Positions 7,258 to 52,946 of a DNA stretch of 64,000 nt are shown here, one piece after another; the stretch's first letter is position 1, and each line of letters starts with the position of its first letter. The DNA comes from Dehalococcoidia bacterium (GTDB lineage Bacteria > Chloroflexota > Dehalococcoidia > Lucifugimonadales > CAZENU01). The stretch spans positions 815,992 to 879,991 of the forward strand of contig OZ220748.1 in NCBI GenBank assembly GCA_965117035.1. Direction: 5' to 3'. The notes below the pieces were generated by a model. It was not told where the DNA came from. It saw only the letters and a list, made by a program, of their open reading frames with translations, and searched no databases. A program made the translations under genes and the position numbers.

Positions 7258-7485
7258 TCAGAGTTGGGACGCACGCGACCCTGCCGCCAGGGAACGTCTG
7301 AACCGTGATCCGTGTGATTCGGTGATTGGGATGAGAGGGAGACGACAGGCGGAATGGCCCGCGTTCCTCTCAGCAACTCCAAACGGCGACTCCACACCGA
7401 ATCGGAGATGCTGCGTGCACGCGCCCGACCGAGTCGTCCTCGAACCGAGGGCGACCTCGGGTTGGCGACGCTTCCTGGGTGACAC
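7258..7485 (-). other. 75-codon ORF behind the second R5 leader; possible gene remnant, coding status doubtful
   Basis: GTG start preceded by GGAGGGGGAG, in the same arrangement as the Gfo/Idh/MocA start; product is Arg/Ser-rich with no recognisable motif. Confidence 0.2.
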
Positions 7486-7586
7486 GGCTCCCCCTCCATT
7501 GTGTGATACAGTGCGGTCGCAGCGGCCGTCCCGGCAACCTGTGCCATATCGGACAGAGGATATCCCGCTGGCCCACTGCCAGGCGA
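7484..7586. promoter_or_regulatory. shared divergent-leader element R5, copy 2
   Basis: Homologous to 6562-6664 (AGGATATCCC here); lies 34 nt upstream of the first MDR paralog start. Confidence 0.45.
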
Positions 7587-7619
7587 CGCAGGCGTCGCAC
7601 CCATCGAGGAGGCACCAAC

Positions 7620-8642
7620 ATGGCAGAGACGGGCAGGATGCTGTCGGTGGTCGATGGCGAGCGGGTCGTCGTCGAGACGTACGATGTCCCGGAGCCGGGG
7701 CCCGGCGAGGTGCTGGTCAGGGTCAACCGCACCCAGGTCAGCGCCGGCAGCGAGAAGGGACGGTTCCGCGGCGCCTCCGCGCCCGACCCGCGGACGCCCC
7801 TCGGCTACTACCCGGAGCCGCCCGGATACACCGCCGCGGGACGCGTGCAGGCGGTCGGGCCCGGCGTGGAGGGATTCGAGACCGGCGACAGGGTGTTCGC
7901 CTTCGGCAGGCACCAGTCTCACCTGCTTGCACAGGTCGACCGCTACGGGGACGCCGGGTTGCGAAAGAACGTGCAGCGCATCGAATACGACGTCACCGAC
8001 GAGCAGGCGTGCCTGTCGCGGCTCGGAGACGTAGCGCTGCACAGCGTCAGGCGCGCGGAGCTGCAGCCCGACGAGGCGGTCGCTGTATTCGGACAGGGCG
8101 TCGTCGGACAGCTCATCGCGGCGTTCGCCCGCGTCTCCGGCGCGTACCCCATCATCGCGGTGGACCTGGACGACGGCAGGCTCGAGCTGTCGAAGACCAG
8201 CGGCGCGACGCACACCGTGAACGCCGCGAAGGAGAACGCCGTGGAGGCCGTGGAGGCGATCACGGGAGGCGGGGCCGAGTGCGTCTTCCACGCCAACAGG
8301 GAGGCGCAGGTGCTCGCAGAGTGCGTCGACGCGGCCGGCTACGGCGGCAAGGTCATTCTCGTCGGCGCGACGCGCGGGCCCGCCAGCATCTACCTGAACA
8401 AGCTGCTGGTGCGCGAGATAGACCTCCGCGGGTCGCACTTCGTCAGCGACGTCCAGCAGCGCTACTGGAAGTGGACGACATCCCGCGACCGCAACGCCAT
8501 CCTGCGCATGATCGCCCACGGCGACATCAGCGTGGACCACCTGATCAGCCACGTCCTCAGGCCCGAGCAGGGTGACGAGGCCTACCAGCGCATCGTCGCG
8601 GGCCCAGAGGGCTGGATGGGCGTATTCTTCGCCTGGGACTGA
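7620..8642 (+). CDS. MDR-superfamily (zinc-type alcohol dehydrogenase-like) oxidoreductase, paralog 1 of 3
   Basis: ATG at 7620 after GAGGAGG; GroES-like N-domain (PGPGEVLVRVNRTQVSAGSE), Rossmann GQGVVGQL, 340 aa; N-terminus MAETGRMLSVVDGERVV shared by all three paralogs. Confidence 0.9.
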   Translation: MAETGRMLSVVDGERVVVETYDVPEPGPGEVLVRVNRTQVSAGSEKGRFRGASAPDPRTPLGYYPEPPGYTAAGRVQAVGPGVEGFETGDRVFAFGRHQSHLLAQVDRYGDAGLRKNVQRIEYDVTDEQACLSRLGDVALHSVRRAELQPDEAVAVFGQGVVGQLIAAFARVSGAYPIIAVDLDDGRLELSKTSGATHTVNAAKENAVEAVEAITGGGAECVFHANREAQVLAECVDAAGYGGKVILVGATRGPASIYLNKLLVREIDLRGSHFVSDVQQRYWKWTTSRDRNAILRMIAHGDISVDHLISHVLRPEQGDEAYQRIVAGPEGWMGVFFAWD

Positions 8643-9188: not shown

Positions 9189-10214
9189 ATGGCTGAGACG
9201 GGCAGGATGCTGTCGGTGGTCGACGGCGAGCGGGTCGTGGTCGAGACGTTCGAGGTCCCGGAGCCGGGGCCCGGCGAGCTGCTGATCAGGGTCAACCGCA
9301 CCCAGGTCAGCGCGGGCAGCGAGAAGGGGCGGTTCCGCGGCGCGTCTCCGCCGGACCCGAGGACGCCCCTCGGCTACTCGCCGAGGCCGCCGGGCTACAC
9401 CGCCGCCGGGCGCGTGCAGGCCGTCGGGCCTGGCGTCGAGGGATTCGAGATCGGTGACAGGGTGTTCGCCTACGGCAGACACCAGTCCCACCTGCTTTCG
9501 AGGCTCGAGGATCCTGACGCCGACTCCGGGACGCGAAAGAACGTGCAGCGCATCGAGTACGACGTCACCGACGAGCAGGCCTGCCTGTCGCGGCTCGGAG
9601 ACGTAGCGCTGCACAGCATCAGGCGCGCGGAGCTCCAGCCCGACGAGGCGGTCGCAATCTTCGGCCAGGGCGTCGTCGGACAGCTCATCGCGGCGTTCGC
9701 CCGCGTCTCCGGCGCGTACCCCATCATCGCGGTGGACCTCGACGACGGCCGGCTCGAGCTGTCGAAGACCAGCGGCGCGACGCACACCGTGAACGCATCG
9801 AAGGAGAACGCCGTCGAGGCCGTCGAGGCGATCACCGGAGGCGGGGCCGAGTGCGTGTTCCACGCGAACAGGGAGGCCCAGGTGCTCGCCGACTGCGTCG
9901 ACGCGGCCGGCTACGGCGGCAAGGTTGTGCTCGTAGGCGCGACGCGGGGGCCCGCCAGCATGTACCTGAACAAGCTGCTGGTGCGCGAGATAGACCTGCG
10001 CGGATCGCACTTCGTCAGCGACGTCCAGCAGCGCTACTGGAAGTGGACGACCTCCCGCGACCGCAACGCAATCCTGCGCATGATCGCCCACGGCGACATC
10101 AGCGTGGACCACCTGATCAGCCACGTCGTGGAGCCCGAGGAGGCCGACGACGCCTACCAGCGCATCGTCGCGGGCCCAGAGGGCTGGATGGGCGTATTCT
10201 TCGCCTGGGACTGA
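9189..10214 (+). CDS. MDR-superfamily oxidoreductase, paralog 2 of 3
   Basis: ATG at 9189 after GAGGAG; roughly 85-90% identical by eye to paralog 1 along the full length. Confidence 0.9.
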   Translation: MAETGRMLSVVDGERVVVETFEVPEPGPGELLIRVNRTQVSAGSEKGRFRGASPPDPRTPLGYSPRPPGYTAAGRVQAVGPGVEGFEIGDRVFAYGRHQSHLLSRLEDPDADSGTRKNVQRIEYDVTDEQACLSRLGDVALHSIRRAELQPDEAVAIFGQGVVGQLIAAFARVSGAYPIIAVDLDDGRLELSKTSGATHTVNASKENAVEAVEAITGGGAECVFHANREAQVLADCVDAAGYGGKVVLVGATRGPASMYLNKLLVREIDLRGSHFVSDVQQRYWKWTTSRDRNAILRMIAHGDISVDHLISHVVEPEEADDAYQRIVAGPEGWMGVFFAWD

Positions 10215-10270
10215 CGCGGGCCACTCCCGATTCGGACACACGAGTCGCACGAGACCAGGGAGCCTCGAAC

Positions 10271-11293
10271 ATGGCAGAGACGGGCAGGATGCTGTCGGTG
10301 GTCGACGGCGAACGGGTCGTCATAGAGACGTTCGAGGTCCCGGATCCGGGGCCCGGCGAGGTGCTCGTCAGGGTCAACCGGACGCAGGTCAGCGCGGGCA
10401 GCGAGAAGGGCCGGTTCCGCGGCGCGTCGCCGCCGGACCCACAGATCCCCCTCGGGTACTGGCAGATCCCGCCCGGCTACACCGCAGCGGGCCGCGTGCA
10501 GGCGGTCGGGCCGGGCGTGGAGGGCTTCGAATCCGGCGAGAGGGTGTTCTGCTCGGGGAGGCACGCGTCGCATCTGGTCTCCCGTCTCGAGGACAGGGAC
10601 GACGGCGGGATGCGAAAGCGGGTGCAGCGCATCGTGTTCGACGTCACGGACGAGCAGGCCTGCTTCTCGCGCCTCGGAGACGTCGCGCTGCACAGCGTCA
10701 GGCGGGCCGAGCTGCAGCCCGACGAGTCGGTCGCCATCTTCGGACAGGGCGTCGTCGGACAGCTCATCGCGGCGTTCGCCCGCATCTCGGGCGCGTACCC
10801 GATCATCGCCATCGACCTAGACGACGGCAGGCTCGAGCTCTCGAAGGCCAGCGGCGCGACGCACACCGTGAACGCCGCGAAGGAGAACGCCGTCGAGGCC
10901 GTGGAGGCGATCACCGGAGGCGGAGCGGAGTCGGTCTTCCACGCCAACAGGGAGGCCCAGTCGCTCGCCGACTGCGTAGACGCGGCCGGCTACGGCGGCA
11001 AGGTGGTGCTCGTTGGCGCGACGTACGGGCCGGTCAGCATGTACCTCACCAATCTGCTGAGACGGGAGATAAGCGTCCGGGGCTCCCACATGGTCAGCGA
11101 CGTCGAGCAGAGGTACTGGAAGTGGACCACCTCCCGCGACCGCGACGCCGTCATGCGGATGATCGCCCACGGCGACATCAGCGTCGACCACCTCATCAGC
11201 CACGTCCTGCGCCCGGAGCAGGCCGACGAGGCCTTCCAGCGCATCGTCGCGGGCCCCCAGGACTGGATGGGCGTCTTCTTCGCCTGGGACTGA
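10271..11293 (+). CDS. MDR-superfamily oxidoreductase, paralog 3 of 3
   Basis: ATG at 10271 after AGGGAG, only 56 nt after the paralog 2 stop; same architecture, the most diverged copy. Confidence 0.9.
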   Translation: MAETGRMLSVVDGERVVIETFEVPDPGPGEVLVRVNRTQVSAGSEKGRFRGASPPDPQIPLGYWQIPPGYTAAGRVQAVGPGVEGFESGERVFCSGRHASHLVSRLEDRDDGGMRKRVQRIVFDVTDEQACFSRLGDVALHSVRRAELQPDESVAIFGQGVVGQLIAAFARISGAYPIIAIDLDDGRLELSKASGATHTVNAAKENAVEAVEAITGGGAESVFHANREAQSLADCVDAAGYGGKVVLVGATYGPVSMYLTNLLRREISVRGSHMVSDVEQRYWKWTTSRDRDAVMRMIAHGDISVDHLISHVLRPEQADEAFQRIVAGPQDWMGVFFAWD

Positions 11294-11418: not shown

Positions 11419-12663
11419 TTGAACGAGTTCACGTTCATCATCCTGGCGGCGCTGGCGTTTGAGCTTGCTCTCGGCGTCGTGTCGGACTGGCTCAACCTGC
11501 GGGCGCTCGACCCCGAGATGCCGGCGGAGCTGTCCGACATCTACGAGTCCGACGAGTACCGCCGGTCCCAGGAGTACACCCGGACGAAGACCCGGTTCGG
11601 GTTCGTGACGGCGGCGTTCGACCTCGCCCTGCTGTTGGCATTCTGGTTCGCGGGCGGGTTCGACGCGCTGGACAGCGCCGCCGCGAGCGCCTGGGACCAC
11701 CCGGTCGGCACCGGGCTGCTCTACATCGGCGTCCTGGCTCTCGGGTACACGCTCGTGACGCTCCCGTTCGGCGTCTACGCCACATTCGGCATCGAGGAGC
11801 GGTTCGGGTTCAACAAGACGACGGCGCGGACCTTCGTCTTCGACAGGCTCAAGGGGCTGGGCCTCCTCCTCGCGCTGGGCGGCCCGCTTCTGGCCGTCGT
11901 GCTGGCCTTCTTCGAGTACGCCGGCGCCCTTGCCTGGGTCTACGGATGGTTGGCCGTCACCGTCTTCAGCCTCGTAATGGCGTTCGTCGCGCCGACCTGG
12001 ATCATGCCCCTCTTCAACAAGTTCACGCCCCTGGAGGCGGGCGAGCTGCGGGACTCGATCCTCGACTACGCCCGCTCGGTCGACTTCACCGTCTCGAACA
12101 TCTTGGTGATGGACGGCTCGAAGCGCTCCAGCAAGGCCAACGCCTTCTTCACCGGCTTCGGACGCAACAAGCGCATCGCGCTCTTCGATACCCTGATCGA
12201 GAAGCACACCACGGCGGAGCTGACGGCGGTCGTTGCCCACGAGATCGGCCACTACAAGCGGCGCCACGTGCCCCAGGGCATCGTTCTCGGAATCGCGACC
12301 ACCGGGCTGGTGTTCTTCCTGCTGTCGCTGGTGCTGAAAGCGGACGGCCTGTACGACGCCTTCTTCATGGAGCGCCAGTCGACGTACGCCGGGCTCGTCT
12401 TCTTCGGCCTGCTCTACTCGCCGGTGCAGCTCGTGCTGTCGACCGCCAGGAAGATGCTGTCGCGGCGCCACGAGTACGAGGCCGACCGCTGGTCGGTCGA
12501 CACGACGCACGACCCGCGGGCCCTCGCCGACGGGCTCAAACGCCTGGCGGCAGACAGCCTCGCCAACCTCCAGCCGCACCCGCTGCACTCGTTCCTCAAC
12601 GACACCCACCCGCCCCTGCTCCAGCGCGTCCACGCGATAGAGCGCCACGGGGCAGGGCGGTAG
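11419..12663 (+). CDS. M48 family zinc metalloprotease (Ste24/HtpX-like)
   Basis: TTG start after GGGAGG; multiple N-terminal TM segments, HEIGHYKRRH (HExxH) zinc site, downstream glutamate-containing helix. Confidence 0.9.
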   Translation: MNEFTFIILAALAFELALGVVSDWLNLRALDPEMPAELSDIYESDEYRRSQEYTRTKTRFGFVTAAFDLALLLAFWFAGGFDALDSAAASAWDHPVGTGLLYIGVLALGYTLVTLPFGVYATFGIEERFGFNKTTARTFVFDRLKGLGLLLALGGPLLAVVLAFFEYAGALAWVYGWLAVTVFSLVMAFVAPTWIMPLFNKFTPLEAGELRDSILDYARSVDFTVSNILVMDGSKRSSKANAFFTGFGRNKRIALFDTLIEKHTTAELTAVVAHEIGHYKRRHVPQGIVLGIATTGLVFFLLSLVLKADGLYDAFFMERQSTYAGLVFFGLLYSPVQLVLSTARKMLSRRHEYEADRWSVDTTHDPRALADGLKRLAADSLANLQPHPLHSFLNDTHPPLLQRVHAIERHGAGR

Positions 12664-12710
12664 CCGCGAGGAAATCGGCGGGCGCTCCACGGGTGACGAC
12701 GGTCGCCTGA

Positions 12711-13756
12711 TGTCGTCCCGAACGGAGTGAGGGACCTGGGGCGGGGGCCGGTCGACGCACGGTGCAGGTCGCGAAGACCCCGCCCCAGGTCCTTCGGCTT
12801 CGCTCAGGGCGACAGGGCTGCCGCAGCCGCTCCGGGGGGACCGTTCTTGACGAGGCGTCTAGCGGCCACCTGCAGTTGCGACGTGACCGCCAACAATGTC
12901 GTCCCGAACGGAGTGAAGGACCTGGGGCGGGGTCGACACGCGGCCTGGGTCGAGCGGCCCCCGCCCCAGGTCCTTCGGCTTCGCTCAGGACGACAGGGCT
13001 GCCGCGACCGCTCCGGGGGGTGGGCCGTTCTTGACGAGGCGTCTAGCGGCCACCTGTGATGGCTACATGCCCCGCACACAGTGTCGTCCCGAACGGAGTG
13101 AGGGACCTGGGGCGGGGGCCAGTCGACGCACGGTGCAGGTCGCGAAGACCCCGCCCCAGGTCCTTCGGCTTCGCTCAGGACGACAGGGCTGCCGCGACCG
13201 CTCCGGGGTTGCGCGCGATTCCTGATCAGGCATTTGGTGGCCCTGTGATGGCTGCGAGTCCGCCAACAATGTCGTCCCGAACGGAGTGAGGGACCTGGGG
13301 CGGGGGCCGGTCGACGCACGGTGCAGGTCGCGAAGACCCCGCCCCAGGTCCTTCGGCTCCGCTCAGGACGACAGCGCTGCCGCAGCCGCTCTTGGGGGAC
13401 CGTTCTTGACGAGGCGTCTAGCGGCCACCTGCAGTTGCGACGTGACCGCCAACAATGTCGTCCCGAACGGAGTGAAGGACCTGGGGCGGGGTCGACACGC
13501 GGCCTGGGTCGAGCGGCCCCCGCCCCAGGTCCTTCGGCTTCGCTCAGGACGACAGGGCTGCCGCGACCGCTCCGGGGTTGCGCGCGATTCCTGATCAGGC
13601 ATTTGGTGGCCCTGTGATGGCTGCGAGTCCACACACAATGTCGTCCCGAACGGAGTGAGGGACCTGGGGCGGGGTCGACACGCGGCTTGGGTCGAGCGGC
13701 CCCCGCCCCAGGTCCTTCGGCTTCGCTCAGGACGACAGGAAGCTGCCCGCGGCCTG
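12711..13756. repeat. tandem array of six 183-188-bp hairpin modules (unit starts 12711, 12897, 13082, 13270, 13456, 13639)
   Basis: Direct reading. Each unit starts TGTCGTCCCGAACGGAGTGA(G/A)GGACCTGGGGCGGGG, has one of two loops, then CCCCGCCCCAGGTCCTTCGGCTTCGCTCAGGACGAC, then one of two tails. Units 1-3 and 4-6 form a 559-bp super-repeat. Confidence 0.95.
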
Positions 13757-15154
13757 CTAGAGGCTCTTGACCTCGTTGACGAGATCGGTGAGGGACTGGC
13801 GGGCGTCGGCGAAGAGCATGAGCGTGTTCTCCTTGTAGAACAACTCGTTGTCGAGGCCCGCGAAGCCGGGGTTGAGGCTGCGTTTCAGCACGAGCACGTG
13901 GCCCGCGCGGTCGACGTTCAGGATGGGCATGCCGTAGATGGGGCTGCCCGCGTTGTCCCTCGCCGCCGGGTTGACGACGTCGTTGGCGCCCACGACGAGC
14001 ACCATCTCGGTCGAGTCGAACTCGTCGTTGACCTGGTCGAGGTCGTACAGCTTGTCGTACGGCACCTCGGCCTCCGCGAGCAGCACGTTCATGTGCCCCG
14101 GCATCCGGCCCGCCACCGGGTGGATCGCGTACTTGACCTCCACGCCCTTCTCCGCCATCAGGTCGCCAAGCTCCTTGAGCTGGTGCTGCGCCCGCGAGAC
14201 GGCGAGGCCGTAGCCCGGCACGAAGATCGCCTTGCGGGCGTAGGCGAGCGATATCGCCGCGTCCGAGGCCGTCACCTCGCGGACCGTCTGGGGGCCGCCG
14301 GAGTCGCCGGCCGACGACGACGGGGCCGCGCCGAAGGCGCCGAACATGACGTTGACTATCGACCGGTTCATGGCCTTGGTCATGATGAGCGTGAGGATCA
14401 TTCCCGCCGCGCCCACGAGCGCCCCGGCGACGATCAGGATCGGGTTGCCCAGCACGAACCCGGCGCTGGCAGCGGCGAGCCCTGAGTAGGAGTTCAGCAG
14501 CGAGATCACGACCGGCATGTCGCCGCCGCCTATCGGGATGACCAGCAGCACGCCCAGCAGCAGGCAGGCGGCCGCGAGACCGGCGAACACCTCCAGCCGC
14601 GGGTCCGCGATCGAGTAGCCCATCATCGCGAGCACGCCGAGGAACAGGAGGCCGCTGACGACGTTCTGCAGGGGGAAGGTGATGGGCCGGGTCGTCATCA
14701 CCTCCTGCAGCTTGCCGAAGGCGATCAGGCTGCCCGAGAAGGTCACCAGCCCGATCAGGGTGCCGAGCATGATGGTGACGGCCACGTCGTTGGGTATGCC
14801 GTCGGCCGTGTCGCGCAGCCTGACGAACTCGGCCGCCGCGATGAGCGCCGACGCCCCGCCGCCAAGGCCGTTGAAGACGGCGACCATCTGCGGCATCGCC
14901 GTCATCCTGATCGTACGCGCCAGGACCCCGCCGACGACCGCGCCGGCCACTATGCCCACGGCGATCAGCTCGTAGCTGACGATCGACTTGTCCAACAGCG
15001 TGACGACGACGGCCACGAGCATCCCCGCGGAGGCGAGGACGTTGCCCGAGCGCGCGGTGGCCGGCGAGCTGAGACGCTTGAGGCCAAGGAAGAAGAGCGC
15101 GGCTGAGACGAGATAGGCCCCGCCGATCAGCGTCTGGACGTCGAAGTCGATCAT
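13757..15154 (-). CDS. pntB: NAD(P) transhydrogenase subunit beta
   Basis: 465 aa, polytopic N-terminal domain plus C-terminal NADP(H)-binding domain (GYGLAVSRAQH, VVGANDVVNPAA); ATGA overlap with the upstream gene. Confidence 0.95.
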   Translation of the reverse strand: MIDFDVQTLIGGAYLVSAALFFLGLKRLSSPATARSGNVLASAGMLVAVVVTLLDKSIVSYELIAVGIVAGAVVGGVLARTIRMTAMPQMVAVFNGLGGGASALIAAAEFVRLRDTADGIPNDVAVTIMLGTLIGLVTFSGSLIAFGKLQEVMTTRPITFPLQNVVSGLLFLGVLAMMGYSIADPRLEVFAGLAAACLLLGVLLVIPIGGGDMPVVISLLNSYSGLAAASAGFVLGNPILIVAGALVGAAGMILTLIMTKAMNRSIVNVMFGAFGAAPSSSAGDSGGPQTVREVTASDAAISLAYARKAIFVPGYGLAVSRAQHQLKELGDLMAEKGVEVKYAIHPVAGRMPGHMNVLLAEAEVPYDKLYDLDQVNDEFDSTEMVLVVGANDVVNPAARDNAGSPIYGMPILNVDRAGHVLVLKRSLNPGFAGLDNELFYKENTLMLFADARQSLTDLVNEVKSL

Positions 15155-15453
15155 CGGTCGCGGTCTCCGGCGTCTCGCCTGAACATGCGCAGCATGCGGT
15201 CGGTGACCAGGAATCCGCCGACGACGTTGACCGTCGCCAGCGCCACGGCGAACACCCCGAGCGCGACGCTGAGGGCGCCGCCGTCCTGGCCGGCCACGAG
15301 CAGCGCGCCGATGACCGCGATTCCCGAAATGGCGTTCGCGCCGGACATCAGCGGCGTGTGCAGCGTCGGCGGCACCTTGGTTATCACCTCGAAGCCGGCG
15401 AAGGCCGCGAGCACGAAGATGTAGAGCTGGATCAGGAGCGCGCTGTCGATCAC
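15151..15453 (-). CDS. pntAB: NAD(P) transhydrogenase subunit alpha part 2 (membrane)
   Basis: 100-aa three-helix hydrophobic protein between the pntAA-like and pntB genes, 4-nt overlaps on both sides. Confidence 0.9.
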   Translation of the reverse strand: MIDSALLIQLYIFVLAAFAGFEVITKVPPTLHTPLMSGANAISGIAVIGALLVAGQDGGALSVALGVFAVALATVNVVGGFLVTDRMLRMFRRDAGDRDR

Positions 15454-16646
15454 GATGAGGCGTCCTTTCCGGCGTCGGCCTCGACTGGGGCCCCCCGCGG
15501 CTCCCTCGCCTGCCCGTCCGCGGGCACGCCGACGATATCGCCGGCGTGCGTTATGCAGCTAGCCATGGTGATGTCGTCGTCGAAGTCGAGCCCGGACCCG
15601 TCGCCGACCACGTGGACCAGGAAGTTGCCGATGTTGCGGGCGTACATCTGGCTGGCGTGGACCGGAATCGTGCTCGGCAAGCCCAGCGGTCCATGAATCG
15701 CCACGCCGTGCGCGTGCACCGTCTCGCCGGGCCTGGTCAGCTCGCAGTTGCCGCCGGTCTCGGCCGCTATGTCGACGATCACGGCGCCCTGCCGCATGCC
15801 CGCGACCATCGCCTCCGAGACGATCTTCGGGGCTGGGCGGCCTGGGACTGCCGCGGTCGTGATGACGAAGTCTACCGCGGCGACGTGCTCGGCCAGGATG
15901 TCGCTCTCCCGGTGCTGCGTCTCGGCCGATAGCTGCTTGGCGTATCCGCTGGCGTGCTCCGCCTCGGCGACGACGACCTGGGGCTCGACGAAGCTCGCGC
16001 CCAGGCTGCGCACCTGCTCGCCCACCGCGGGCCGGACGTCGTAGCCAAACATGACGGCGCCCGTGCGGCGCGCCGTGGCGATGGCCTGGAGTCCCGCGAC
16101 GCCCGCGCCGATCACCAGCCCCTTCGCGGGGGCGAGCGTGCCGGCGGCGGTGATCATCATCGGCATGAAGCGGTTGAGGGCGTTCGCGGCAATCAGCGCG
16201 GCCTTGTACCCGGCGAGCGACGCCATTGACGTAAGCGCGTCCATGCTCTGGGCGCGCGCGGTCCTGGGGACGGCGTCCATGCTGAAGGCGGTGATGCGGT
16301 TGTCGGCGAGCTTCCTGACCATCCCGGCGTCGCCCGACGGCCGGAGGAAACCGACGAGCAGCGCCCCCGGCTTCATCATATCGGCCTCGTGCCTGCCGAC
16401 CGCCTCGTTCATCATCGGGCGCTCGACCTTGAGCACCGCGTCGGCCGACTCGTAGAGCGTTACGGGGTCCCGCTCGATGGAGGCGCCAGCGTCGAGATAG
16501 TCGGAGTCGGAGACCAGGGCGCCTTCGCCCGCGCCCGACTCCACGGTGATCTCCATCCCGGCTTCGCGGAGCGTCGCCACGGCGTCGGGGACGAGCGCCA
16601 CACGGAGCTCGCCCGCGGCGATCTCTCTCGGGACGGCGACCTTCAA
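15450..16646 (-). CDS. pntAA: NAD(P) transhydrogenase subunit alpha part 1 (alanine dehydrogenase-like dI domain)
   Basis: LKVAVPREIAAGELRVALVPD opening, GAGVAGLQAIATA Rossmann motif; TTG at 16646 after GGAGGG preferred over the longest ORF start at 16700. Confidence 0.9.
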   Translation of the reverse strand: MKVAVPREIAAGELRVALVPDAVATLREAGMEITVESGAGEGALVSDSDYLDAGASIERDPVTLYESADAVLKVERPMMNEAVGRHEADMMKPGALLVGFLRPSGDAGMVRKLADNRITAFSMDAVPRTARAQSMDALTSMASLAGYKAALIAANALNRFMPMMITAAGTLAPAKGLVIGAGVAGLQAIATARRTGAVMFGYDVRPAVGEQVRSLGASFVEPQVVVAEAEHASGYAKQLSAETQHRESDILAEHVAAVDFVITTAAVPGRPAPKIVSEAMVAGMRQGAVIVDIAAETGGNCELTRPGETVHAHGVAIHGPLGLPSTIPVHASQMYARNIGNFLVHVVGDGSGLDFDDDITMASCITHAGDIVGVPADGQAREPRGAPVEADAGKDASS

Positions 16647-16805
16647 ACAAGCCCTCCAACAAGGGAGCGGCCGCTTGGGACACGCCGCTCCACCGCTCAC
16701 ATTCTAGCAAGTCCGGGCACGGCGATTGAAAGAGCCGGCCAGCCGATTTCGCCCGAAAGGCCGATCCCACGCCGTACGACGACCGGTCACTTCCCGTGAC
16801 GATCG

Positions 16806-45872: not shown

Positions 45873-47482
45873 ACTCCGTTGTCCTCACGCCGGCTCAGAC
45901 CGGCGTCGGAACCGCTCTATTCGAAGTGACTCGCCTAGTGCTTCGCGATGTACGCCGTCGTCAGCGTGTTGAAGTCCAGGTTGCTCGTGCTCTCGAATCC
46001 GATGAGCCACGGCTGCACCACCCACTTGACTCCCTGCACCTCGGTGAACGGGATCATGTAGACCTTCTCGAGGTACTCCTGTTCGACGGCCTGGAACGCG
46101 GCGCAGCGGTCCGGGTGGTCCAGCGGCAGCGACCGGGCGTACTCGACCATGGCGTCCAGCACCGGGTAGCCGCCCGGTATGTTGCTCAGCGACTCGATCG
46201 AGTCCTTGCGAGTCAGGTTGCTCACGATCTGGATCGGGTCGGGAATCCACGAACCCAGGCTGATGCGGTAGAACTGCGAGTTCTCGCGCCTGGGCATGCC
46301 CGACTCGCGTCGGAGGATATCCAGCTCCACGTCCAGGTTGTCCTTCCAGTACTCCTTCATCGCGACGCCCATGGCGATGGTCGTCGGGTGCGCCAGGTCG
46401 ATCAGCAGCAGGGGCAGGTTGTCGCCGCTGCCGTAGGTCGACTCGGACAGGGCCTGTCGGGCCAGGTCTGGATCGTAGTACTGGGGATCGGAGTCCGGGT
46501 TGTGACATGGGATCAGGCTGGATATCAGGCCCTTGGCCCTGGTTGCCGTGGAGCCCCATACGGCCTTGACGATCGTCTCCATGTCCTGGCCGTGGGCCAG
46601 CGCCTTGCGGACCAGCAGGTCCTCCAGCGGCGCCATGTCGATCTTCAGCTTGGTGAACCCAAGGCCGCCGTACGGCGAAATGTACAGCAGCGGGTTGAAC
46701 GGATGGCTCGGGTTCAGCGCCGCCTCGTACGTCGTCGAATCGATCGACATCACGTCCAGCTCGCCGTTCTCGAACATGATCACCTGGACCTGGCGGTCCG
46801 GAATCACCGGCAGCGAGAGCTTCTCGATTATGGGCGTGGCGTGCGGCCCGTTCCACTGCTTGCCGGCCAGGTCGACCCTGGTGACCTCGGTGAGGCCGCT
46901 GTCAGGATCGTAGCTCAGGCTGAAGGGGCCCGCCGAGATCGGGGCGTTGCCCCAGTCGTCGTCGGCCTTCACCTGGTCGAGCTTCGAGATGCCGACATGC
47001 CATGCGGCCATGTTCAGCGGCCAGGTGGCCAACGGGATCACCGTCGAAACCTCCAGCGTCTGGTCGTCGATCACGACCAGGCCGTCGGACTCGGTCACCT
47101 CCCCAGCGCGCAACTCTTCCCAGCCCGCGATGTCGCCAAGGGTCAGGCTCGCGCCGCCCCACGCGACGATGTTCTCGGGCTTCGCGCCGTGCTCCCAGTA
47201 AGCCTTGAAGTCGGCCGCCGTGATCGGGGTCCCGTCCTGGAAGACGGCATCCTCACGTATCTTCAGCGTCCAGACGTCCAGCGAGTCGTTGGAGGTGATA
47301 CCCGTCGCGATCCACGGCAGCACGTCTCCCTTCTGGTTGATGATGAAGGGCGGGCCGAAGACCTGCGTCGAGAATATCCTGTTTCCGCCGCCATCGCGCC
47401 ACGGGGCCATCGTGCTCCGGAAGCGGCCCACGGACATCGCGACCTGCGAGTCGTGGAGCTGCGGCCCGCCGCCCTCCGGTCC
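45873..47482. repeat. 1610-bp block apparently identical to 48059-49668 (offset 2186)
   Basis: Boundaries found by direct comparison (first mismatch 47483 C vs 49669 T). All overlapping track ORFs in several frames are letter-identical between the two copies (for example 45885..46856 = 48071..49042). Confidence 0.9.
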
Positions 47483-47776
47483 CGTCCTCGTCTCTACCCT
47501 CGCTCGGGGTCCGCTCGGACCCGCGTCCGCCGCCTGGGGCGCGTCGGGGTCCGCAGCCGCCTGGGCGGGGAGCGGCGTGTCCGCCGCCATAGCCGCCCGC
47601 GGGGCCGCGGGACCGCCCGTGGCCGCCTGCGGCTGCGCCGGGTCTACCGGCTGCGCGGCAGCCTGCGGCGCGACCGGCTCGGCCGCCTCCTCGGCGGCAC
47701 AAGCCGCGACGACTGCCATAGCCGCGATCGCTGCCACAACGAGCAGCAATACTCTCGATTTCAGAACGTTACTCAT
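45935..47776 (-). CDS. ABC substrate-binding lipoprotein, family 5, SBP-1
   Basis: ATG at 47776 after AGAGGT; lipobox (AMAVVAAC), about 95-aa Ala/Pro/Gln linker, SBP_bac_5 body; the C-terminal ~515 aa are identical to SBP-2. Confidence 0.9.
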   Translation of the reverse strand: MSNVLKSRVLLLVVAAIAAMAVVAACAAEEAAEPVAPQAAAQPVDPAQPQAATGGPAAPRAAMAADTPLPAQAAADPDAPQAADAGPSGPRARVETRTGPEGGGPQLHDSQVAMSVGRFRSTMAPWRDGGGNRIFSTQVFGPPFIINQKGDVLPWIATGITSNDSLDVWTLKIREDAVFQDGTPITAADFKAYWEHGAKPENIVAWGGASLTLGDIAGWEELRAGEVTESDGLVVIDDQTLEVSTVIPLATWPLNMAAWHVGISKLDQVKADDDWGNAPISAGPFSLSYDPDSGLTEVTRVDLAGKQWNGPHATPIIEKLSLPVIPDRQVQVIMFENGELDVMSIDSTTYEAALNPSHPFNPLLYISPYGGLGFTKLKIDMAPLEDLLVRKALAHGQDMETIVKAVWGSTATRAKGLISSLIPCHNPDSDPQYYDPDLARQALSESTYGSGDNLPLLLIDLAHPTTIAMGVAMKEYWKDNLDVELDILRRESGMPRRENSQFYRISLGSWIPDPIQIVSNLTRKDSIESLSNIPGGYPVLDAMVEYARSLPLDHPDRCAAFQAVEQEYLEKVYMIPFTEVQGVKWVVQPWLIGFESTSNLDFNTLTTAYIAKH

Positions 47777-47817
47777 TGGTTCGACCTCTATCACTTAAGG
47801 TTCAACGCGTCCTTGCA

Positions 47818-47846
47818 ATAATAGGGAGCGCTCCGATAGCTGTCAA
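47818..47846 (-). promoter_or_regulatory. sigma-70-type promoter of SBP-1 (TTGACA-17-TATTAT)
   Basis: Minus-strand TTGACA at 47846-47841, 17-nt spacer, TATTAT at 47823-47818, about 40 nt upstream of the start codon. Confidence 0.55.
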
Positions 47847-48004
47847 GACCGCCCCGGCGGCGGCGGGAGGCCTCTGAATTCCGCGAAGCCGCGCCCCACA
47901 GGTCGTGTTCGGCCGTATCCGCAAACTCGCAAGGGCAACCCCACCGGTTCAGCCTTCCTGCCGGAGCATTCCGCAGAATGTCCCGCCTGATCGCCCCATC
48001 CATT

Positions 48005-48049
48005 CCCCGGCAACACACGTGGGCCCCGGGATCGCTCCCGGGGCCCCAC
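48005..48049 (-). terminator. GC-rich hairpin terminator after SBP-2
   Basis: GTGGGCCCCGGGA / TCCCGGGGCCCCAC stem (one bulge) with 4-nt loop, 70 nt past the stop codon. Confidence 0.5.
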
Positions 48050-48058
48050 GTTCTGTCG

Positions 48059-49668
48059 ACTCCGTTGTCCTCACGCCGGCTCAGACCGGCGTCGGAACCG
48101 CTCTATTCGAAGTGACTCGCCTAGTGCTTCGCGATGTACGCCGTCGTCAGCGTGTTGAAGTCCAGGTTGCTCGTGCTCTCGAATCCGATGAGCCACGGCT
48201 GCACCACCCACTTGACTCCCTGCACCTCGGTGAACGGGATCATGTAGACCTTCTCGAGGTACTCCTGTTCGACGGCCTGGAACGCGGCGCAGCGGTCCGG
48301 GTGGTCCAGCGGCAGCGACCGGGCGTACTCGACCATGGCGTCCAGCACCGGGTAGCCGCCCGGTATGTTGCTCAGCGACTCGATCGAGTCCTTGCGAGTC
48401 AGGTTGCTCACGATCTGGATCGGGTCGGGAATCCACGAACCCAGGCTGATGCGGTAGAACTGCGAGTTCTCGCGCCTGGGCATGCCCGACTCGCGTCGGA
48501 GGATATCCAGCTCCACGTCCAGGTTGTCCTTCCAGTACTCCTTCATCGCGACGCCCATGGCGATGGTCGTCGGGTGCGCCAGGTCGATCAGCAGCAGGGG
48601 CAGGTTGTCGCCGCTGCCGTAGGTCGACTCGGACAGGGCCTGTCGGGCCAGGTCTGGATCGTAGTACTGGGGATCGGAGTCCGGGTTGTGACATGGGATC
48701 AGGCTGGATATCAGGCCCTTGGCCCTGGTTGCCGTGGAGCCCCATACGGCCTTGACGATCGTCTCCATGTCCTGGCCGTGGGCCAGCGCCTTGCGGACCA
48801 GCAGGTCCTCCAGCGGCGCCATGTCGATCTTCAGCTTGGTGAACCCAAGGCCGCCGTACGGCGAAATGTACAGCAGCGGGTTGAACGGATGGCTCGGGTT
48901 CAGCGCCGCCTCGTACGTCGTCGAATCGATCGACATCACGTCCAGCTCGCCGTTCTCGAACATGATCACCTGGACCTGGCGGTCCGGAATCACCGGCAGC
49001 GAGAGCTTCTCGATTATGGGCGTGGCGTGCGGCCCGTTCCACTGCTTGCCGGCCAGGTCGACCCTGGTGACCTCGGTGAGGCCGCTGTCAGGATCGTAGC
49101 TCAGGCTGAAGGGGCCCGCCGAGATCGGGGCGTTGCCCCAGTCGTCGTCGGCCTTCACCTGGTCGAGCTTCGAGATGCCGACATGCCATGCGGCCATGTT
49201 CAGCGGCCAGGTGGCCAACGGGATCACCGTCGAAACCTCCAGCGTCTGGTCGTCGATCACGACCAGGCCGTCGGACTCGGTCACCTCCCCAGCGCGCAAC
49301 TCTTCCCAGCCCGCGATGTCGCCAAGGGTCAGGCTCGCGCCGCCCCACGCGACGATGTTCTCGGGCTTCGCGCCGTGCTCCCAGTAAGCCTTGAAGTCGG
49401 CCGCCGTGATCGGGGTCCCGTCCTGGAAGACGGCATCCTCACGTATCTTCAGCGTCCAGACGTCCAGCGAGTCGTTGGAGGTGATACCCGTCGCGATCCA
49501 CGGCAGCACGTCTCCCTTCTGGTTGATGATGAAGGGCGGGCCGAAGACCTGCGTCGAGAATATCCTGTTTCCGCCGCCATCGCGCCACGGGGCCATCGTG
49601 CTCCGGAAGCGGCCCACGGACATCGCGACCTGCGAGTCGTGGAGCTGCGGCCCGCCGCCCTCCGGTCC
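48059..49668. repeat. second copy of the apparently identical 1610-bp block
   Basis: See 45873-47482. Confidence 0.9.
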
Positions 49669-49965
49669 TGTCCTCGTCTCTACCTTCGCGCGGGGTCCGC
49701 TCGGACCCGCGTCCGCTGCCTGGGGCGCGTCGGGGTCCGCAGCCGCCTGGGCGGGCAGCGGCGTGTCCGCCGCCATCGCGGCCCGCGGCGCCGCGGGCCC
49801 GCCGGTGGCCGCCTGCGGCTGGGCCGGGTCTACAGGCTGCGACGCAGCTTGGGGCGCAACCGGCTCCGCTGCCTCCTCCGCCGCGCAGGACGCGATCGCG
49901 ACCAGCGAGATGATGGATGCGGCCATCAAGAGCAGAATTCCTGATTTCGCCATTTTACGCACCAT
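48121..49965 (-). CDS. ABC substrate-binding lipoprotein, family 5, SBP-2
   Basis: ATG at 49965 after GGGAG (alternative start 49953); lipobox (LVAIASC); differs from SBP-1 only in the signal peptide and a few linker residues. Confidence 0.9.
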   Translation of the reverse strand: MVRKMAKSGILLLMAASIISLVAIASCAAEEAAEPVAPQAASQPVDPAQPQAATGGPAAPRAAMAADTPLPAQAAADPDAPQAADAGPSGPRAKVETRTGPEGGGPQLHDSQVAMSVGRFRSTMAPWRDGGGNRIFSTQVFGPPFIINQKGDVLPWIATGITSNDSLDVWTLKIREDAVFQDGTPITAADFKAYWEHGAKPENIVAWGGASLTLGDIAGWEELRAGEVTESDGLVVIDDQTLEVSTVIPLATWPLNMAAWHVGISKLDQVKADDDWGNAPISAGPFSLSYDPDSGLTEVTRVDLAGKQWNGPHATPIIEKLSLPVIPDRQVQVIMFENGELDVMSIDSTTYEAALNPSHPFNPLLYISPYGGLGFTKLKIDMAPLEDLLVRKALAHGQDMETIVKAVWGSTATRAKGLISSLIPCHNPDSDPQYYDPDLARQALSESTYGSGDNLPLLLIDLAHPTTIAMGVAMKEYWKDNLDVELDILRRESGMPRRENSQFYRISLGSWIPDPIQIVSNLTRKDSIESLSNIPGGYPVLDAMVEYARSLPLDHPDRCAAFQAVEQEYLEKVYMIPFTEVQGVKWVVQPWLIGFESTSNLDFNTLTTAYIAKH

Positions 49966-50007
49966 TATTGCTCCCAATCACTAAAGGGCGTAGTCCAGTG
50001 GGCCCAA

Positions 50008-50035
50008 TTATAGAGGCGCCCGAATCGCTGTCAAT
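50008..50035 (-). promoter_or_regulatory. sigma-70-type promoter of SBP-2 (TTGACA-16-TATAAT)
   Basis: Minus-strand TTGACA 50035-50030, 16-nt spacer, TATAAT 50013-50008. Confidence 0.6.
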
Positions 50036-50189
50036 ACCTCGGAGTCCGAGGCGGCGGACCGTCGATCTCCGGCATCCGTGATCCGGGTCCACTGCTTCAG
50101 TCGGACCGCGCCCGTTGCGTTTGGCCGGGGCGGCCGGCGCCTTGGTTCGCAAGAACTCGACGCACGTCCGCCGGCGCCGTGGGCCTACC

Positions 50190-50233
50190 GTGGGGAACGA
50201 CAAAGGGCCCCGGGCAGTTGCCCCGGGGCCCTT
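50190..50233 (-). terminator. GC-rich hairpin terminator after SBP-3
   Basis: AAGGGCCCCGGGC / GCCCCGGGGCCCTT stem, AGTT loop, followed on the minus strand by TTTGTCGTT. Confidence 0.6.
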
Positions 50234-50261
50234 CGACTTATCGTCGGTTATGCGGTCCGGT

Positions 50262-52070
50262 CTAGTGCTTCAGGATGTACATCCAGGGCATCGTGTTGAT
50301 TTCTTTGTTGCTTGTGCTCTCGAAGCCAACCGCCCACGGCTGCACGATCCACTTCGAGCCGCCGACCCACCGGATAGGCATGAAGTACACCTTGTCCATG
50401 TACTCTTCCTCGACCGCCTGCCACGCCGCGCAGCGCTCTGGATCGTCCAGCGCCAGCGACCGCGCGTGCTCTACCAGCGCGTCCATCACCGGGTAACCGC
50501 CCGGAATGTTGCTCAGACCCTCGATCGAGTCCTTACGGGTCAGGTTGCTTACGATCTGGATCGGGTCCGGTATCCACGAACCCAGGCTGATGCGGTAGAA
50601 CTGCGACGCCTCTCGCCGAGGCATGCCGCTCTCGCGCTTCAGGATGTCGAGATCGATGCCGAGGTTGTCCTTCCAGTACTCCTTGACCGCGACGCCCATG
50701 TTGACCATGAGCGGACGGGCCAGGTCGATCAGCAGCGGCGGTAGGTTGTCCGCACTGCCGTACGAGGACGTGGTCAACTCCTGGCGGGCCAGGTCAGGAT
50801 CGTAGATGTGACCCTGGGCATCCGGGTTGTGGCAAGGAATCAGCGGCGAGATCAGTCCCGTCGCGAAGTCCTCGGTCACGCCCCAGACCGCCTTGACGAT
50901 CGAGCGCATGTCCGCGCCGTGCGCCAGCGCCTTGCGGACCAGCAGGTCCTCCAGCGGCGCCATGTCGATCTTGTTCTTGATGAACCACAGGCCGCCGTAC
51001 GGGGTTACCACCAGCAGCGGGTTGAACGGATGGCTCGGGTCCAGCGCAGCCTCGTAGGTCGCGCTGTCGATCGCCATCAGGTCGAGCTCGCCGTTCTCGA
51101 ACGCGATCACCTTGACCTGGTTGTCGGTGATGTTCAGGCCGTGCAGCACCTTGATGTTAGGCGAGGGGCCCCAGAACTCGGCAACGTCGGCCGTAGCCGT
51201 GTACACTTTCGTGTCAGGATCCGTCTCCCACTTGTACGGGCCAGCGCCGATCGGCTTGGTGAACCACTCTTCGTCAGACTGGACCTGGTCGAGCTTCGAG
51301 ATGCCCGAGTGCCAGGACGCCATGGCCAGCGGCCAGGTCGGGAACGGGATGGCCGTCGTGATCTCGAGGGTGTGGTCGTCGACAGCGACCAGGCCCTCGG
51401 CCTCGGTCACGTCGCCCGCGCGCAGCTCTTCCCAGCCCGCGATGTCGCCCAGGGACAGGCTCGCGCCGCCCCACGCAACGATATTCTCAGGCTTCGCGCC
51501 GTGCTCCCAGTAGGCCTTGAAGTCGGCCGCCGTGATCGGAGTGCCGTCCTGGAAGACAGCGTCCTCACGCAGCTTGACCGTCCAGACCGTCTCGTCCTCG
51601 TTGACCGTGTGGCTGATGCCAATGTACGGCCGGATCACGCCGAACTTGTCGACCTGGTAGATCATGCCGTATACCCACGGCGAGAAGATCCGCTGTCCGC
51701 CGCCGTCACGCCAGGGGGCTACCCCACCATGACCGTTCGGGATCCTGATCTCCTGCGGGTCGTGCAGCTCGGTGCCCGCCGGGACGACCGTCGTCGGGTC
51801 GACCGGGAAGACATCCGGCAGCTTCATCATCCCCGTGTCCGCCGGCATCGCCGCGGTTGGCGCAGCCGTCGCCGCGGCAGGCGCCGCGGTCGGCGCCATC
51901 GCTGCCGTCGTCGGCGCGGCCGGTGCCGTCGTCGGCGCGGCTGGCGCCGTCGTCGGCGCGGCCATTGCCGCCGTCGGAGCCGGCTCCGCCGCTTCTTCAT
52001 CTGTGCCGCACGCCAGCGCAGCCACCAGCACAATCGACACCAACATGACCAATAGCAGCTTGAGCTTCAT
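50262..52070 (-). CDS. ABC substrate-binding lipoprotein, family 5, SBP-3
   Basis: ATG at 52070 after AAGGGGGA; MKLKLLLVMLVSIVLVAALAC lipobox; Ala/Pro/Thr linker with 3 x 21-bp repeat; body clearly diverged from SBP-1/2, with conserved blocks. Confidence 0.9.
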   Translation of the reverse strand: MKLKLLLVMLVSIVLVAALACGTDEEAAEPAPTAAMAAPTTAPAAPTTAPAAPTTAAMAPTAAPAAATAAPTAAMPADTGMMKLPDVFPVDPTTVVPAGTELHDPQEIRIPNGHGGVAPWRDGGGQRIFSPWVYGMIYQVDKFGVIRPYIGISHTVNEDETVWTVKLREDAVFQDGTPITAADFKAYWEHGAKPENIVAWGGASLSLGDIAGWEELRAGDVTEAEGLVAVDDHTLEITTAIPFPTWPLAMASWHSGISKLDQVQSDEEWFTKPIGAGPYKWETDPDTKVYTATADVAEFWGPSPNIKVLHGLNITDNQVKVIAFENGELDLMAIDSATYEAALDPSHPFNPLLVVTPYGGLWFIKNKIDMAPLEDLLVRKALAHGADMRSIVKAVWGVTEDFATGLISPLIPCHNPDAQGHIYDPDLARQELTTSSYGSADNLPPLLIDLARPLMVNMGVAVKEYWKDNLGIDLDILKRESGMPRREASQFYRISLGSWIPDPIQIVSNLTRKDSIEGLSNIPGGYPVMDALVEHARSLALDDPERCAAWQAVEEEYMDKVYFMPIRWVGGSKWIVQPWAVGFESTSNKEINTMPWMYILKH

Positions 52071-52084
52071 CGAATTCCCCCTTT

Positions 52085-52189: not shown

Positions 52190-52214
52190 TAAAGGGCGTA
52201 ATCCAGTGGGCTCC

Positions 52215-52242
52215 ATTATAGAGGCGCCCGAACCGTTGTCAA
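52215..52242 (-). promoter_or_regulatory. sigma-70-type promoter upstream of SBP-3 (TTGACA-16-TATAAT)
   Basis: Minus-strand TTGACA 52242-52237, 16-nt spacer, TATAAT 52220-52215; leader of about 140 nt containing the fossil start. Confidence 0.55.
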
Positions 52243-52918: not shown

Positions 52919-52946
52919 CGACTTATCGTCGGTTATGCGGTCCGGT

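Follow-up and report, generated by a model that had tools for sequence, protein, structure and literature searches.

Six hairpin units between the M48 protease and pntB genes of a Dehalococcoidia bacterium: a probable cluster of tagged-palindrome doublets and its relatives across bacteria

What kind of element fills the space between two converging housekeeping genes with six long hairpins placed head to tail? The question is raised by a 64,000-nucleotide stretch of the genome of a Dehalococcoidia bacterium (GenBank assembly GCA_965117035.1, contig OZ220748.1, positions 815,992 to 879,991), called the window here, in which the hairpins lie between the gene for an M48 metalloprotease and pntB, the gene for NAD(P) transhydrogenase beta. 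The gap is probably a cluster of repetitive extragenic palindrome (REP) doublets, similar to a bacterial interspersed mosaic element (BIME). As a locus it is a modest one: the bacterium is uncultured, the genes on either side of the repeats are housekeeping genes, and a cluster of doublets is ordinary in itself. What is unusual is the conservation across phyla of the short palindromic arm from which the doublets are built, the DNA mini-hairpin core of that arm, its constraint when compared with synonymous sites, and its association elsewhere with a gene for a small GIY-YIG nuclease.

The six units start at positions 12711, 12897, 13082, 13270, 13456 and 13639 and are 183–188 bp long, each with a hairpin of ~100 nt followed by a spacer, or tail, of ~83 nt. 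The hairpin consists of two inverted arms of 28–29 nt with their tags facing outward, about 15 more complementary bases and a loop of 26–31 nt; the arms of a doublet are ~47–52 nt apart. Tandem Repeats Finder reports the array at 12710–13739 with a period of 181 bp in 5.6 copies and also 369 bp in 2.8 copies. The 15-mer GGACCTGGGGCGGGG has 12 exact copies, all within the array, compared with 0.87 in shuffled sequences, and the left-arm and right-arm sequences, with six copies each, are confined to the array within the window. The hairpins fold at -73 to -74 kcal/mol (z = -7 to -8) and their complementary strand folds about equally well (-68 to -74 kcal/mol), while no significant fold was detected in the ~83-nt spacers. 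An earlier description of this DNA made from its letters alone, the sequence-only reading, had proposed six head-to-tail units with these starts and periods, a long hairpin in each, and converging M48 protease and pntB flanks. Repeat finding and self-comparison, folding of both strands, and Pfam bear out these points in turn. The last unit, which had been placed 16 nt before the pntB stop codon, actually ends 19 nt before it, with the end of the hairpin at 13737 and the first base of the stop codon at 13757. At the other side, the stop codon of the M48 protease gene is 47 nt upstream of hairpin 1. The features are as follows.

11419–12663, + strand: M48 (CAAX/Ste24-type) metalloprotease gene (Pfam PF16491, PF01435; list of open reading frames)
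12664–12710: unique pre-array spacer, ~91% identity to the relative L120
12711–12814: hairpin 1, loop A; arms 12711–12738 (+) and 12786–12814 (-), covariance-model scores 43.6 and 32.8 bits; fold -73.3 kcal/mol, z = -7.0
12815–12896: spacer 1, type T1 (unit comparison)
12897–12995: hairpin 2, loop B; arms 12897–12924 (+) and 12967–12995 (-) by covariance model; fold -73.9 kcal/mol, z = -8.1
12996–13081: spacer 2, T1/T2 intermediate, about equally similar to T1 and L120 spacers (~77–82%)
13082–13185: hairpin 3, loop A; arms 13082–13109 (+) and 13157–13185 (-) by covariance model
13186–13269: spacer 3, type T2, the most diverged type (68–75% identity to L120 spacers)
13270–13373: hairpin 4, loop A; arms 13270–13297 (+) and 13345–13373 (-) by covariance model
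13374–13455: spacer 4, type T1 (unit comparison)
13456–13554: hairpin 5, loop B; arms 13456–13483 (+) and 13526–13554 (-) by covariance model
13555–13638: spacer 5, type T2 (unit comparison)
13639–13737: hairpin 6, loop B; arms 13639–13666 (+) and 13709–13737 (-) by covariance model
13738–13756: remainder of 19 nt between hairpin 6 and the pntB stop codon
13757–15154, - strand: pntB, converging on the array, with parts of pntA beyond it at 15151–16700 (Pfam for the two together: PF02233, PF12769, PF01262, PF05222)

An open reading frame (ORF) of 276 codons runs across the array on the - strand. It is not a credible gene, and the unit periods are not multiples of three. None of the ORFs in the array survives the codon-position GC filter by which the 45 genes of the window were recognised.

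The arm is a small tagged palindrome. Its plan is TGTC, a 5-bp stem, GA, (G/A)CGNAG(C/T), GA and the complement of the stem, within 28–29 nt. The left arm reads TGTC-GTCCC-GA-ACGGAGT-GA-GGGAC-CTG and the right arm, as its reverse complement, TGTC-GTCCT-GA-GCGAAGCC-GA-AGGAC-CTG. The structure has an unpaired TGTC tag, a stem of 5 bp, a tandem G.A/A.G step and a GNA triloop closed by 2 bp, after which the other side of the stem follows. All 12 arms in the window carry the TGTC tag, and the 5-bp intra-arm stem is perfect in 10 of them; the exceptions are in units 2 and 5, whose left arms each have one C.A mismatch. Where the left and right arms differ from each other, the long hairpin has a C.A mismatch and a G.U pair.

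Covariation supports a small hairpin within the arm. As a check against circularity, arms were collected by the 11-nt loop motif alone, which gave 52 arms outside the search pattern used for the wider survey described below. Of these, 29 have stems with Watson–Crick pairs at all five positions, and at least six different stem pairs occur (ATCCT/AGGAT, GTCCT/AGGAC, ATTCT/AGAAT, ATCCC/GGGAT, ATGCT/AGCAT, ATTCC/GGAAT); their tags include TGTC in 18 cases and CGTC in seven. Across 63 distinct arms, the structure ....(((((..((...))..)))))... is paired in 96% of cells, six of the seven pairs change on both sides, and none of 500 shuffles reaches the observed covariation score. Sliding one strand along the other drops the pairing to ~40%. 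The inner pair takes part in the covariation, with GC...GC becoming AC...GT. The core, GCGAAGC or GCGGAGC (or the covarying ACGRAGT), belongs to the GCGNAGC class of DNA mini-hairpins, which melt at ~76 °C as DNA and are far less stable in the RNA form (PMC13037366).

A repeat that looks unique to the window is built from a palindrome that is common, nearly base for base, to a dozen phyla. The degenerate pattern GTCGTCCYGARCGRAGN{1,2}GARGGACC, which covers both arms, was scanned on one genome per species and matched more than 118 stretches in at least 12 phyla. The hosts among the matches listed include Gemmatimonadota, Alphaproteobacteria (Reyranella, Vineibacter and others), Acidobacteriota, Chloroflexota, Nitrospirota, Armatimonadota, Bacteroidota, Synergistota, Melainabacteria, Verrucomicrobiota, Legionella and one Solirubrobacterales genome. 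As a rule, the matches lie between genes, often right behind a stop codon, and many form inverted pairs 50–100 nt apart. Legionella maceachernii, in a locus selected by its arms, has a smaller doublet array of 90 bp in 4.3 copies. Annotators meet this palindrome as spurious small ORFs or as odd hairpins. Other routes to related sequences returned little: two of the units, compared by BLASTN in a distant mode with collections of plasmids and phages, had no match, an exact look-up of the PntB protein of the window gave no record, a text search of the literature for the arm sequence gave chance primer matches only, and the lineage-specific pattern CCCGAACGGAGTGAGGGNNCTGGGG had zero matches in a metagenome collection that does not hold the ENA assemblies of the relatives. 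No recurrent transposase family was found near the arms in 118 loci.

Two further observations stand apart. Tandem arm arrays without a detected GIY-YIG gene lie in two arm-selected loci, at L030 2227–2610 and L076 5517–5802. In contigs of Thermomicrobiales (L084 at ~184–304, L087 and L101), the flanks of TGTC arms hold what appear to be other hairpin variants, one of them AGCTTGTCGAAGGA and another an additional TGTCATCCCGAGCGC arm, a hint that tagged palindromes with a common outer stem may form a broader superfamily.

The same site in related genomes gives a view of how the repeat behaves. The closest homologues of the M48 protease (70–95% identity) are found in ENA metagenome assemblies, and the best named matches of the M48 protease and RpoD come from Chloroflexi/Chloroflexota genomes at ~56–63%. 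Seven orthologous M48–pntB loci were recovered, listed here with the identity of their M48 protease to that of the window.

L120 (93%): six-hairpin array, 5.6 units of 182 bp
L121 (86%): a single hairpin directly beside the pntB stop codon, then TTTTCTT on the M48 protease strand
L119, L122 and L123 (94%, 95% and 84%): no such hairpin; a GTAG-type palindrome pair, GTAGGGGCGGGTTTGGAACCCGCCC ... GGCGGGTTTGAAACCCGCCTCTAC
L124 and L127 (78% and 70%): an acetyltransferase gene and no repeat

The M48–pntB gap is a hot spot with rapid turnover. The finding of the GTAG pair and the TGTC hairpins in the same gap means that two unrelated REP classes occupy one site in close relatives. The single hairpin of L121 has the position of hairpin 6 in the window. 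The partners of the GTAG-tagged pair are ~190 bp apart (L119 7262–7470, L122 1525–1735, L123 4263–4475). The whole neighbourhood is structurally fluid: two to four tandem paralogues of a zinc-dependent alcohol dehydrogenase, variable in number, lie upstream of the M48 protease gene in the relatives (upstream regions of L119–L121), the region of these paralogues in the window being 9851–11293 and 7479–8642, and toxin–antitoxin-like genes of the Gp49/HigB families are inserted in the neighbourhoods of some relatives.

The comparison with L120 allows the constraint on the arm to be separated from that on the long hairpin. At fourfold-degenerate sites, the window and L120 are identical at 70% in the M48 protease gene and 74% in pntB. 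The arm consensus is identical in the two, with 7 changes per ~756 arm nt over 12 units, and the loops and tails are far more variable than the arms. The arms have been held near-constant while the loops and spacers drift and recombine, across a divergence of ~27% at fourfold sites. Changes in the upper stem of the L120 hairpins are uncompensated, as in a T.T mismatch, and with the arms intact this indicates that the arm is maintained and not the long hairpin. Orthologous sites thus hold one copy, six copies, a repeat of another type or none, and the arms are unchanged, so something maintains the palindromes, either selection or conversion from a master copy. Gene identity has no local peak beside the array, and nothing therefore suggests a recent transfer of the region.

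The units of the window differ mainly in their loops and tails. Units 1, 3 and 4 carry loop A and units 2, 5 and 6 carry loop B, while tail T1 belongs to units 1 and 4, T2 to units 3 and 5, and the tail of unit 2 is intermediate, all as the sequence-only reading had assigned them. It had also called the loops and tails alternatives and their arrangement combinatorially shuffled. There are indeed two types of each, and two diverged unit types with crossovers between them, but A and B, like T1 and T2, can be aligned as diverged versions of one segment (the spacers have 64–96% identity among themselves) and are not unrelated modules, so the wording was too strong. A 559-bp higher-order repeat, proposed for units 1–3 against units 4–6, covers only 300 nt at 98% (12710–13009 versus 13269–13568), after which the spacing switches to 369 bp for 184 nt at 93%. 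Registers of 559 and 369 bp in one array are a signature of crossovers inside it. In L120, the units group together (87–99% identity) and the tails alternate between two subtypes to give a two-unit higher-order period. The two registers and this alternation support the earlier suggestion of unequal recombination.

The B-type hairpins of the window are nearer to those of L120 (87–94%) than to the A-type hairpins beside them (84–86%), which makes the B type the likely older form as judged by sequence comparison. Whether loop A could be an inverted loop B is ambiguous. The inverted alignment of loop A with loop B beats 98% of shuffles, the direct alignment of loop A with the L121 loop is equally good, neither alignment holds against the L120 loop, and the loops are quasi-palindromic.

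The array has the layout of REPs, BIMEs and the hairpin-forming REP doublets known as REPINs. REP palindromes have a conserved tetranucleotide at their foot (PMC6006769). The arms of 28–29 nt fall in the size range of REPs (short palindromes of 20–40 nt), carry an unpaired tetranucleotide at the foot that is TGTC or CGTC, not the classical GTAG, and form inverted doublets in a cluster (six doublets of one + and one - arm), each of which could fold as a pair of small hairpins or as a single long one. By description, the closest known group is the superfamily of CGTC/TGTC-tagged REPs (PMC3733652, Di Nocera, De Gregorio and Rocco 2013), which the array resembles in its way of working and to which it is probably related, though at most as a putative member of one of its families. 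In that superfamily, the terminal tag is allowed to be CGTC, TGTC or CCTC, the repeats are mostly head-to-head dimers with 20–100-bp spacers and a short unpaired tail, and dimer clusters reiterated in tandem with flanking DNA are described and called rare. The families described have an 8–9-bp Watson–Crick stem that starts A-T/T-A, a 4–5-nt loop and a CCA tail. Their range is given as five phyla, mostly Alphaproteobacteria, and they are said to have "no dedicated transposase".

The likeness extends to several features. The arm has an unpaired (C/T)GTC tag at one end and a short unpaired tail at the other, and it forms extragenic inverted dimers in several phyla with the tags outward and the potential for a long hairpin. 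The arm stem has nine positions, of which two are G.A/A.G, compared with the 8–9 bp of the published stem; it starts with AT in many members of the arm family (ATCCT, ATTCT, ATCCC) and with G-C, T-A in the window array. The differences are that the arms here occur in at least 12 phyla and bracket a GIY-YIG gene elsewhere. The REP-encoded peptides of a supplementary table of the paper (VIPAKAGIQ, VIPGLDPGIH, RHSELVSGS) imply cores unlike that of the arm. The arm family, with its GAGCGAAGCGA core, may be one of CGTC-1 to CGTC-4 or a fifth family. The REP/BIME-like reading offered earlier as one of several is thus supported by tagged palindromes in inverted doublets, by a family spread over many phyla and by the layout of the CGTC/TGTC-tagged REPs.

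The BIMEs of Escherichia coli, especially BIME-2, and REPINs are also similar in having inverted doublet hairpins arranged head to tail with linkers, between converging or co-directional genes, in copy numbers that differ between relatives. Unlike the array, they have a GTAG tag and a Y1 (HUH) transposase, the REP-associated tyrosine transposase (RAYT), of which none was seen in the window. They are also high-copy and lineage-specific, whereas the arm is nearly identical across phyla and is found at a single locus in the DNA sampled. BIMEs bind gyrase or IHF.

The search for neighbouring genes around the arms in 118 loci exposed a recurrent small GIY-YIG ORF. A profile search found six such ORFs in arm loci, three of them with arms within 190 bp on both sides. 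The proteins belong to PF01541 in Pfam, have no model in NCBIfam, and have as their nearest solved structures the "hypothetical UPF0213" proteins 1zg2 and 1ywl. UPF0213 is a bacterial Slx1-like group (PMC1564403). To approach the association from the protein side, 80 metagenome loci (L128–L207) were picked by the relationship of their GIY-YIG protein only and then scanned with the arm covariance model. They contain 165 arm matches in 215 kb, with at least one arm in 48 of the 80 loci. An upstream arm lies within 200 bp of the gene in 37 of 73 loci and is on the + strand in 30 of these 37, a downstream arm lies within 200 bp in 33 of 70 and is on the - strand in 27 of the 33, and the gene has arms to either side in 24 of 63. 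Close to the GIY-YIG gene, within 200 bp, the density of arms is 3.3 per kb, compared with 0.19 per kb beyond 400 bp, a 17-fold difference.

The typical unit is 360–500 bp long and is made of an arm with ~15–20 further inverted-repeat bases, an ORF of ~90–100 codons and an inverted arm, with the tags outward. Examples of these units are listed below.

L155: 1937–2344
L145: 1942–2317
L201: 130–488
L168: 1013–1376

The unit in L195 has the CGAACGGAGTGA core of the left arm of the window, and the two arms of L145 have different stems that are each internally complementary, so that compensation occurs within arms. Tandem arrays of arms or doublets are found in nine of the 80 loci (L131, L137, L138, L148, L149, L156, L184, L190 and L199), with periods of 73–279 bp and 2–5.7 copies. 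Most of these arrays are inside an arm-bracketed unit or abut it; a few are several hundred bp away, and in L156 and L190 the array is farther from the gene.

Arm-bracketed GIY-YIG genes were also seen at L018 15–700 and L114 850–1400. The tandem arrays at L131 1458–1906, L137 1268–1918, L149 2285–2819, L156 908–1393 and L184 563–970, together with those of L030 and L076, come from other phyla and resemble the window array, with periods of 79–177 bp and 2.5–5.7 copies. The five in protein-selected loci are placed inside the arm-bracketed unit or ~100–140 bp or less from a GIY-YIG gene.

It can be proposed, tentatively and at somewhat less than even confidence, that the arm is the terminal inverted repeat of a 360–500-bp selfish unit that encodes only a UPF0213/Slx1-like GIY-YIG nuclease and is spread across many phyla. 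Neither the window nor the contigs of its relatives contain a GIY-YIG ORF. No paper linking GIY-YIG/UPF0213 proteins with REP-like repeats was found, in a literature search of incomplete coverage. The association is a computational one and reaches beyond the window. If the selfish-unit proposal is true, the arm–loop–arm hairpins of the window are non-autonomous derivatives and tandem arm arrays are a typical by-product, the CGTC/TGTC-tagged REP-like class gains a dedicated enzyme, which earlier studies had looked for in vain, and the bacterial UPF0213 proteins (PDB 1zg2, 1ywl) gain a function. CGTC-type REPs are without a known dedicated enzyme, and since 2013 it has been an open question how they spread; the arm-bracketed Slx1-like GIY-YIG gene is a specific candidate.

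The same units bear on the earlier statement that the array is not an obvious miniature inverted-repeat transposable element (MITE), which needs to be qualified, as the hairpin resembles a gene-less form of the arm–GIY–arm unit. As in a MITE, the hairpin has two terminal inverted repeats (the arm and ~15 nt) around a short loop, and a longer form with the same ends carries one small gene elsewhere. The differences from MITEs are that the associated gene encodes a ~90-aa GIY-YIG nuclease and not a DDE, serine or Y1 transposase, and that each end of the hairpin is itself a palindrome. No target-site duplication was apparent in the arm flanks inspected by eye.

The d(GCGNAGC) mini-hairpins of the phage G4 origin, ssiA and the phage N4 virion RNA polymerase promoters (PMC13037366) share with the arm its core, which has a GAA or GGA triloop and is carried by a 5-bp stem. 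They differ in being single functional sites in the single-stranded DNA of phages or plasmids. We know of no described link of these initiation sites to repeats or to a GIY-YIG gene.

These comparisons suggest how the array could have arisen. It would have started as one hairpin next to the pntB stop codon, as in L121. Unequal recombination between the repeated arms, or slippage between them during replication, would then have multiplied the hairpin and ~83 bp of adjoining DNA into six head-to-tail copies. The mosaic of loops and tails would be the result of subsequent exchange, by crossovers and gene conversion, between two unit types that had diverged. Each doublet would be the gene-less counterpart of an arm–GIY–arm unit. 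The arms may act as extruded or single-stranded DNA hairpins and would probably be recognised by a structure-specific nuclease acting in trans; the small UPF0213/Slx1-like GIY-YIG protein is the candidate and may create or maintain the elements. At the RNA level, hairpins 1 and 6, which stand at the 3' ends of the converging messenger RNAs (mRNAs), would probably act as 3'-end barriers or a terminator–insulator. The extra hairpin copies are most likely a neutral by-product.

A role of this kind for the outer hairpins raises the alternative that the whole array is a bidirectional terminator or insulator and mRNA 3'-end stabiliser selected by the host, with six copies kept to block read-through and exonucleases. 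The great stability of the hairpins on both strands (-68 to -74 kcal/mol) is what such a device would have, as is their placement between converging genes, 47 nt past one stop codon and 19 nt before the other. The single hairpin of L121 followed by TTTTCTT is like an intrinsic terminator, the array has been kept in two diverged genomes, and REPs are reported to stabilise mRNA and affect termination (PMC3733652). However, a consensus scan of 12400–14000, which showed no sigma-70-type promoter either, found no U-tract terminator, and no U-tract lies behind any hairpin of the window. One hairpin would suffice for termination, close relatives have a different repeat or none at the site, and the inner upper stems of L120 are mismatched without compensation while the arms are intact, so that selection is not on the long hairpin. 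Termination also leaves the occurrence of the arm in a dozen phyla unexplained, and on this balance it is an unlikely account of the array. The strong and significant fold and the conservation of the arms beyond neutral expectation could also be read as the mark of an array of structured small-RNA genes, that is, noncoding RNA paralogues transcribed from one strand. A slight strand preference is in line with this, as the + strand has G.U where the - strand has A.C (-73.3 versus -67.8 kcal/mol for unit 1), but unit 2 folds equally on both strands. A match to a described RNA family, an outcome that the sequence-only reading had itself named as telling against its view, did not appear in Rfam. 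At the gathering threshold, the window has one tRNA, and the array gave only sub-threshold microRNA-precursor matches in a permissive search, as expected of any long hairpin. The negative promoter scan, the lack of conservation in loops and tails, a triloop core that is stable as DNA and not as RNA, and covariation that backs the small palindromes inside the arms, competitors of the long hairpin, all speak against RNA genes and make them very improbable here.

Tandem repeats of ~185 bp are hard to assemble, and an array with a regular look of repeats and spacers is superficially similar to a clustered regularly interspaced short palindromic repeat (CRISPR) locus. A collapsed or expanded repeat in the assembly, or a CRISPR-like or integron-like array, can nevertheless be given almost no weight. 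The same six hairpins recur with their own substitutions in L120, an independent contig from another sample, so the array is not an assembly artefact. As the sequence-only reading had held, it is not a CRISPR: the "spacers" are homologous to each other, in contrast to the unique spacers of CRISPRs, the repeats are ~100 nt long (24–48 bp in CRISPRs) and fully palindromic, no cas domains were found in the window, and no cas, integrase or reverse transcriptase genes are present in its 64 kb.

Several results weigh against the preferred reading of the gap as a BIME-like cluster of REP doublets. Scans with the covariance model of the arm detect 12 arms in the window, 12 in L120 and two in L121 and nothing further in 130 kb; the next best match, at 14.7 bits, is within pntB, and a structural regex scan agrees. 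No arm thus lies outside the array in the 64-kb window, as had been stated from the letters and as exact, regex and covariance-model scans agree, or in ~66 kb of seven related contigs. The dispersed copies typical of REPs were not found in this DNA, which is part of a genome and makes for a test of lower power, and with a single locus in the DNA sampled, repetitiveness elsewhere in this genome is not shown. The 45 genes of the window include no RAYT (Y1/HUH), other transposase or GIY-YIG gene. The arm departs from the four CGTC families, as these are described, in its 3-nt loop (GNA) and CCT/CTC tail, compared with 4–5 nt and CCA. The repeat states among the relatives are not tree-like with respect to M48 protease identity. 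The ~83-bp spacer could not be traced to ancestral flanking DNA, as local alignments with the DNA upstream of the single hairpin in L121, the pre-array spacer and the L119 gap were no better than shuffles (z < 1.3). Finally, the isolated arm has -3.3 kcal/mol by standard DNA nearest-neighbour parameters, which take no account of GNA triloops or sheared G.A pairs, and this is not better than shuffles. Given that these energies are unsupportive, the case for the small hairpin is made by the covariation and by the published chemistry of mini-hairpins.

The remaining contents of the window are those of an ordinary chromosome. The 45 genes include dehydrogenases, peptide ABC transporters, a release factor, RpoD and acetyl-CoA synthetase, with no transposase, RAYT, cas, integrase or reverse transcriptase gene among them. 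The peptide ABC transporters include four tandem paralogues of the substrate-binding protein (SBP_bac_5, a peptide-binding protein; 45935–54875). Two minor sets of repeats are found in this region. Between two of the four genes, at 52627–52943, a 165-bp unit is present in 1.9 copies (85% match) with GC-rich hairpins AAGGGCCCCGGG...CCCGGGGCCCTT, which look like duplicated intergenic terminator-like hairpins brought by gene duplication. At 51840–51991 and 54527–54656, GC-rich tandem repeats of 21, 42 and 63 bp (GCCGTCGGCGCGGCCGGTGCC and similar) lie in the 5' parts of two of the paralogues on the - strand and probably encode low-complexity linkers rich in Gly, Ala and Thr after the signal peptide.

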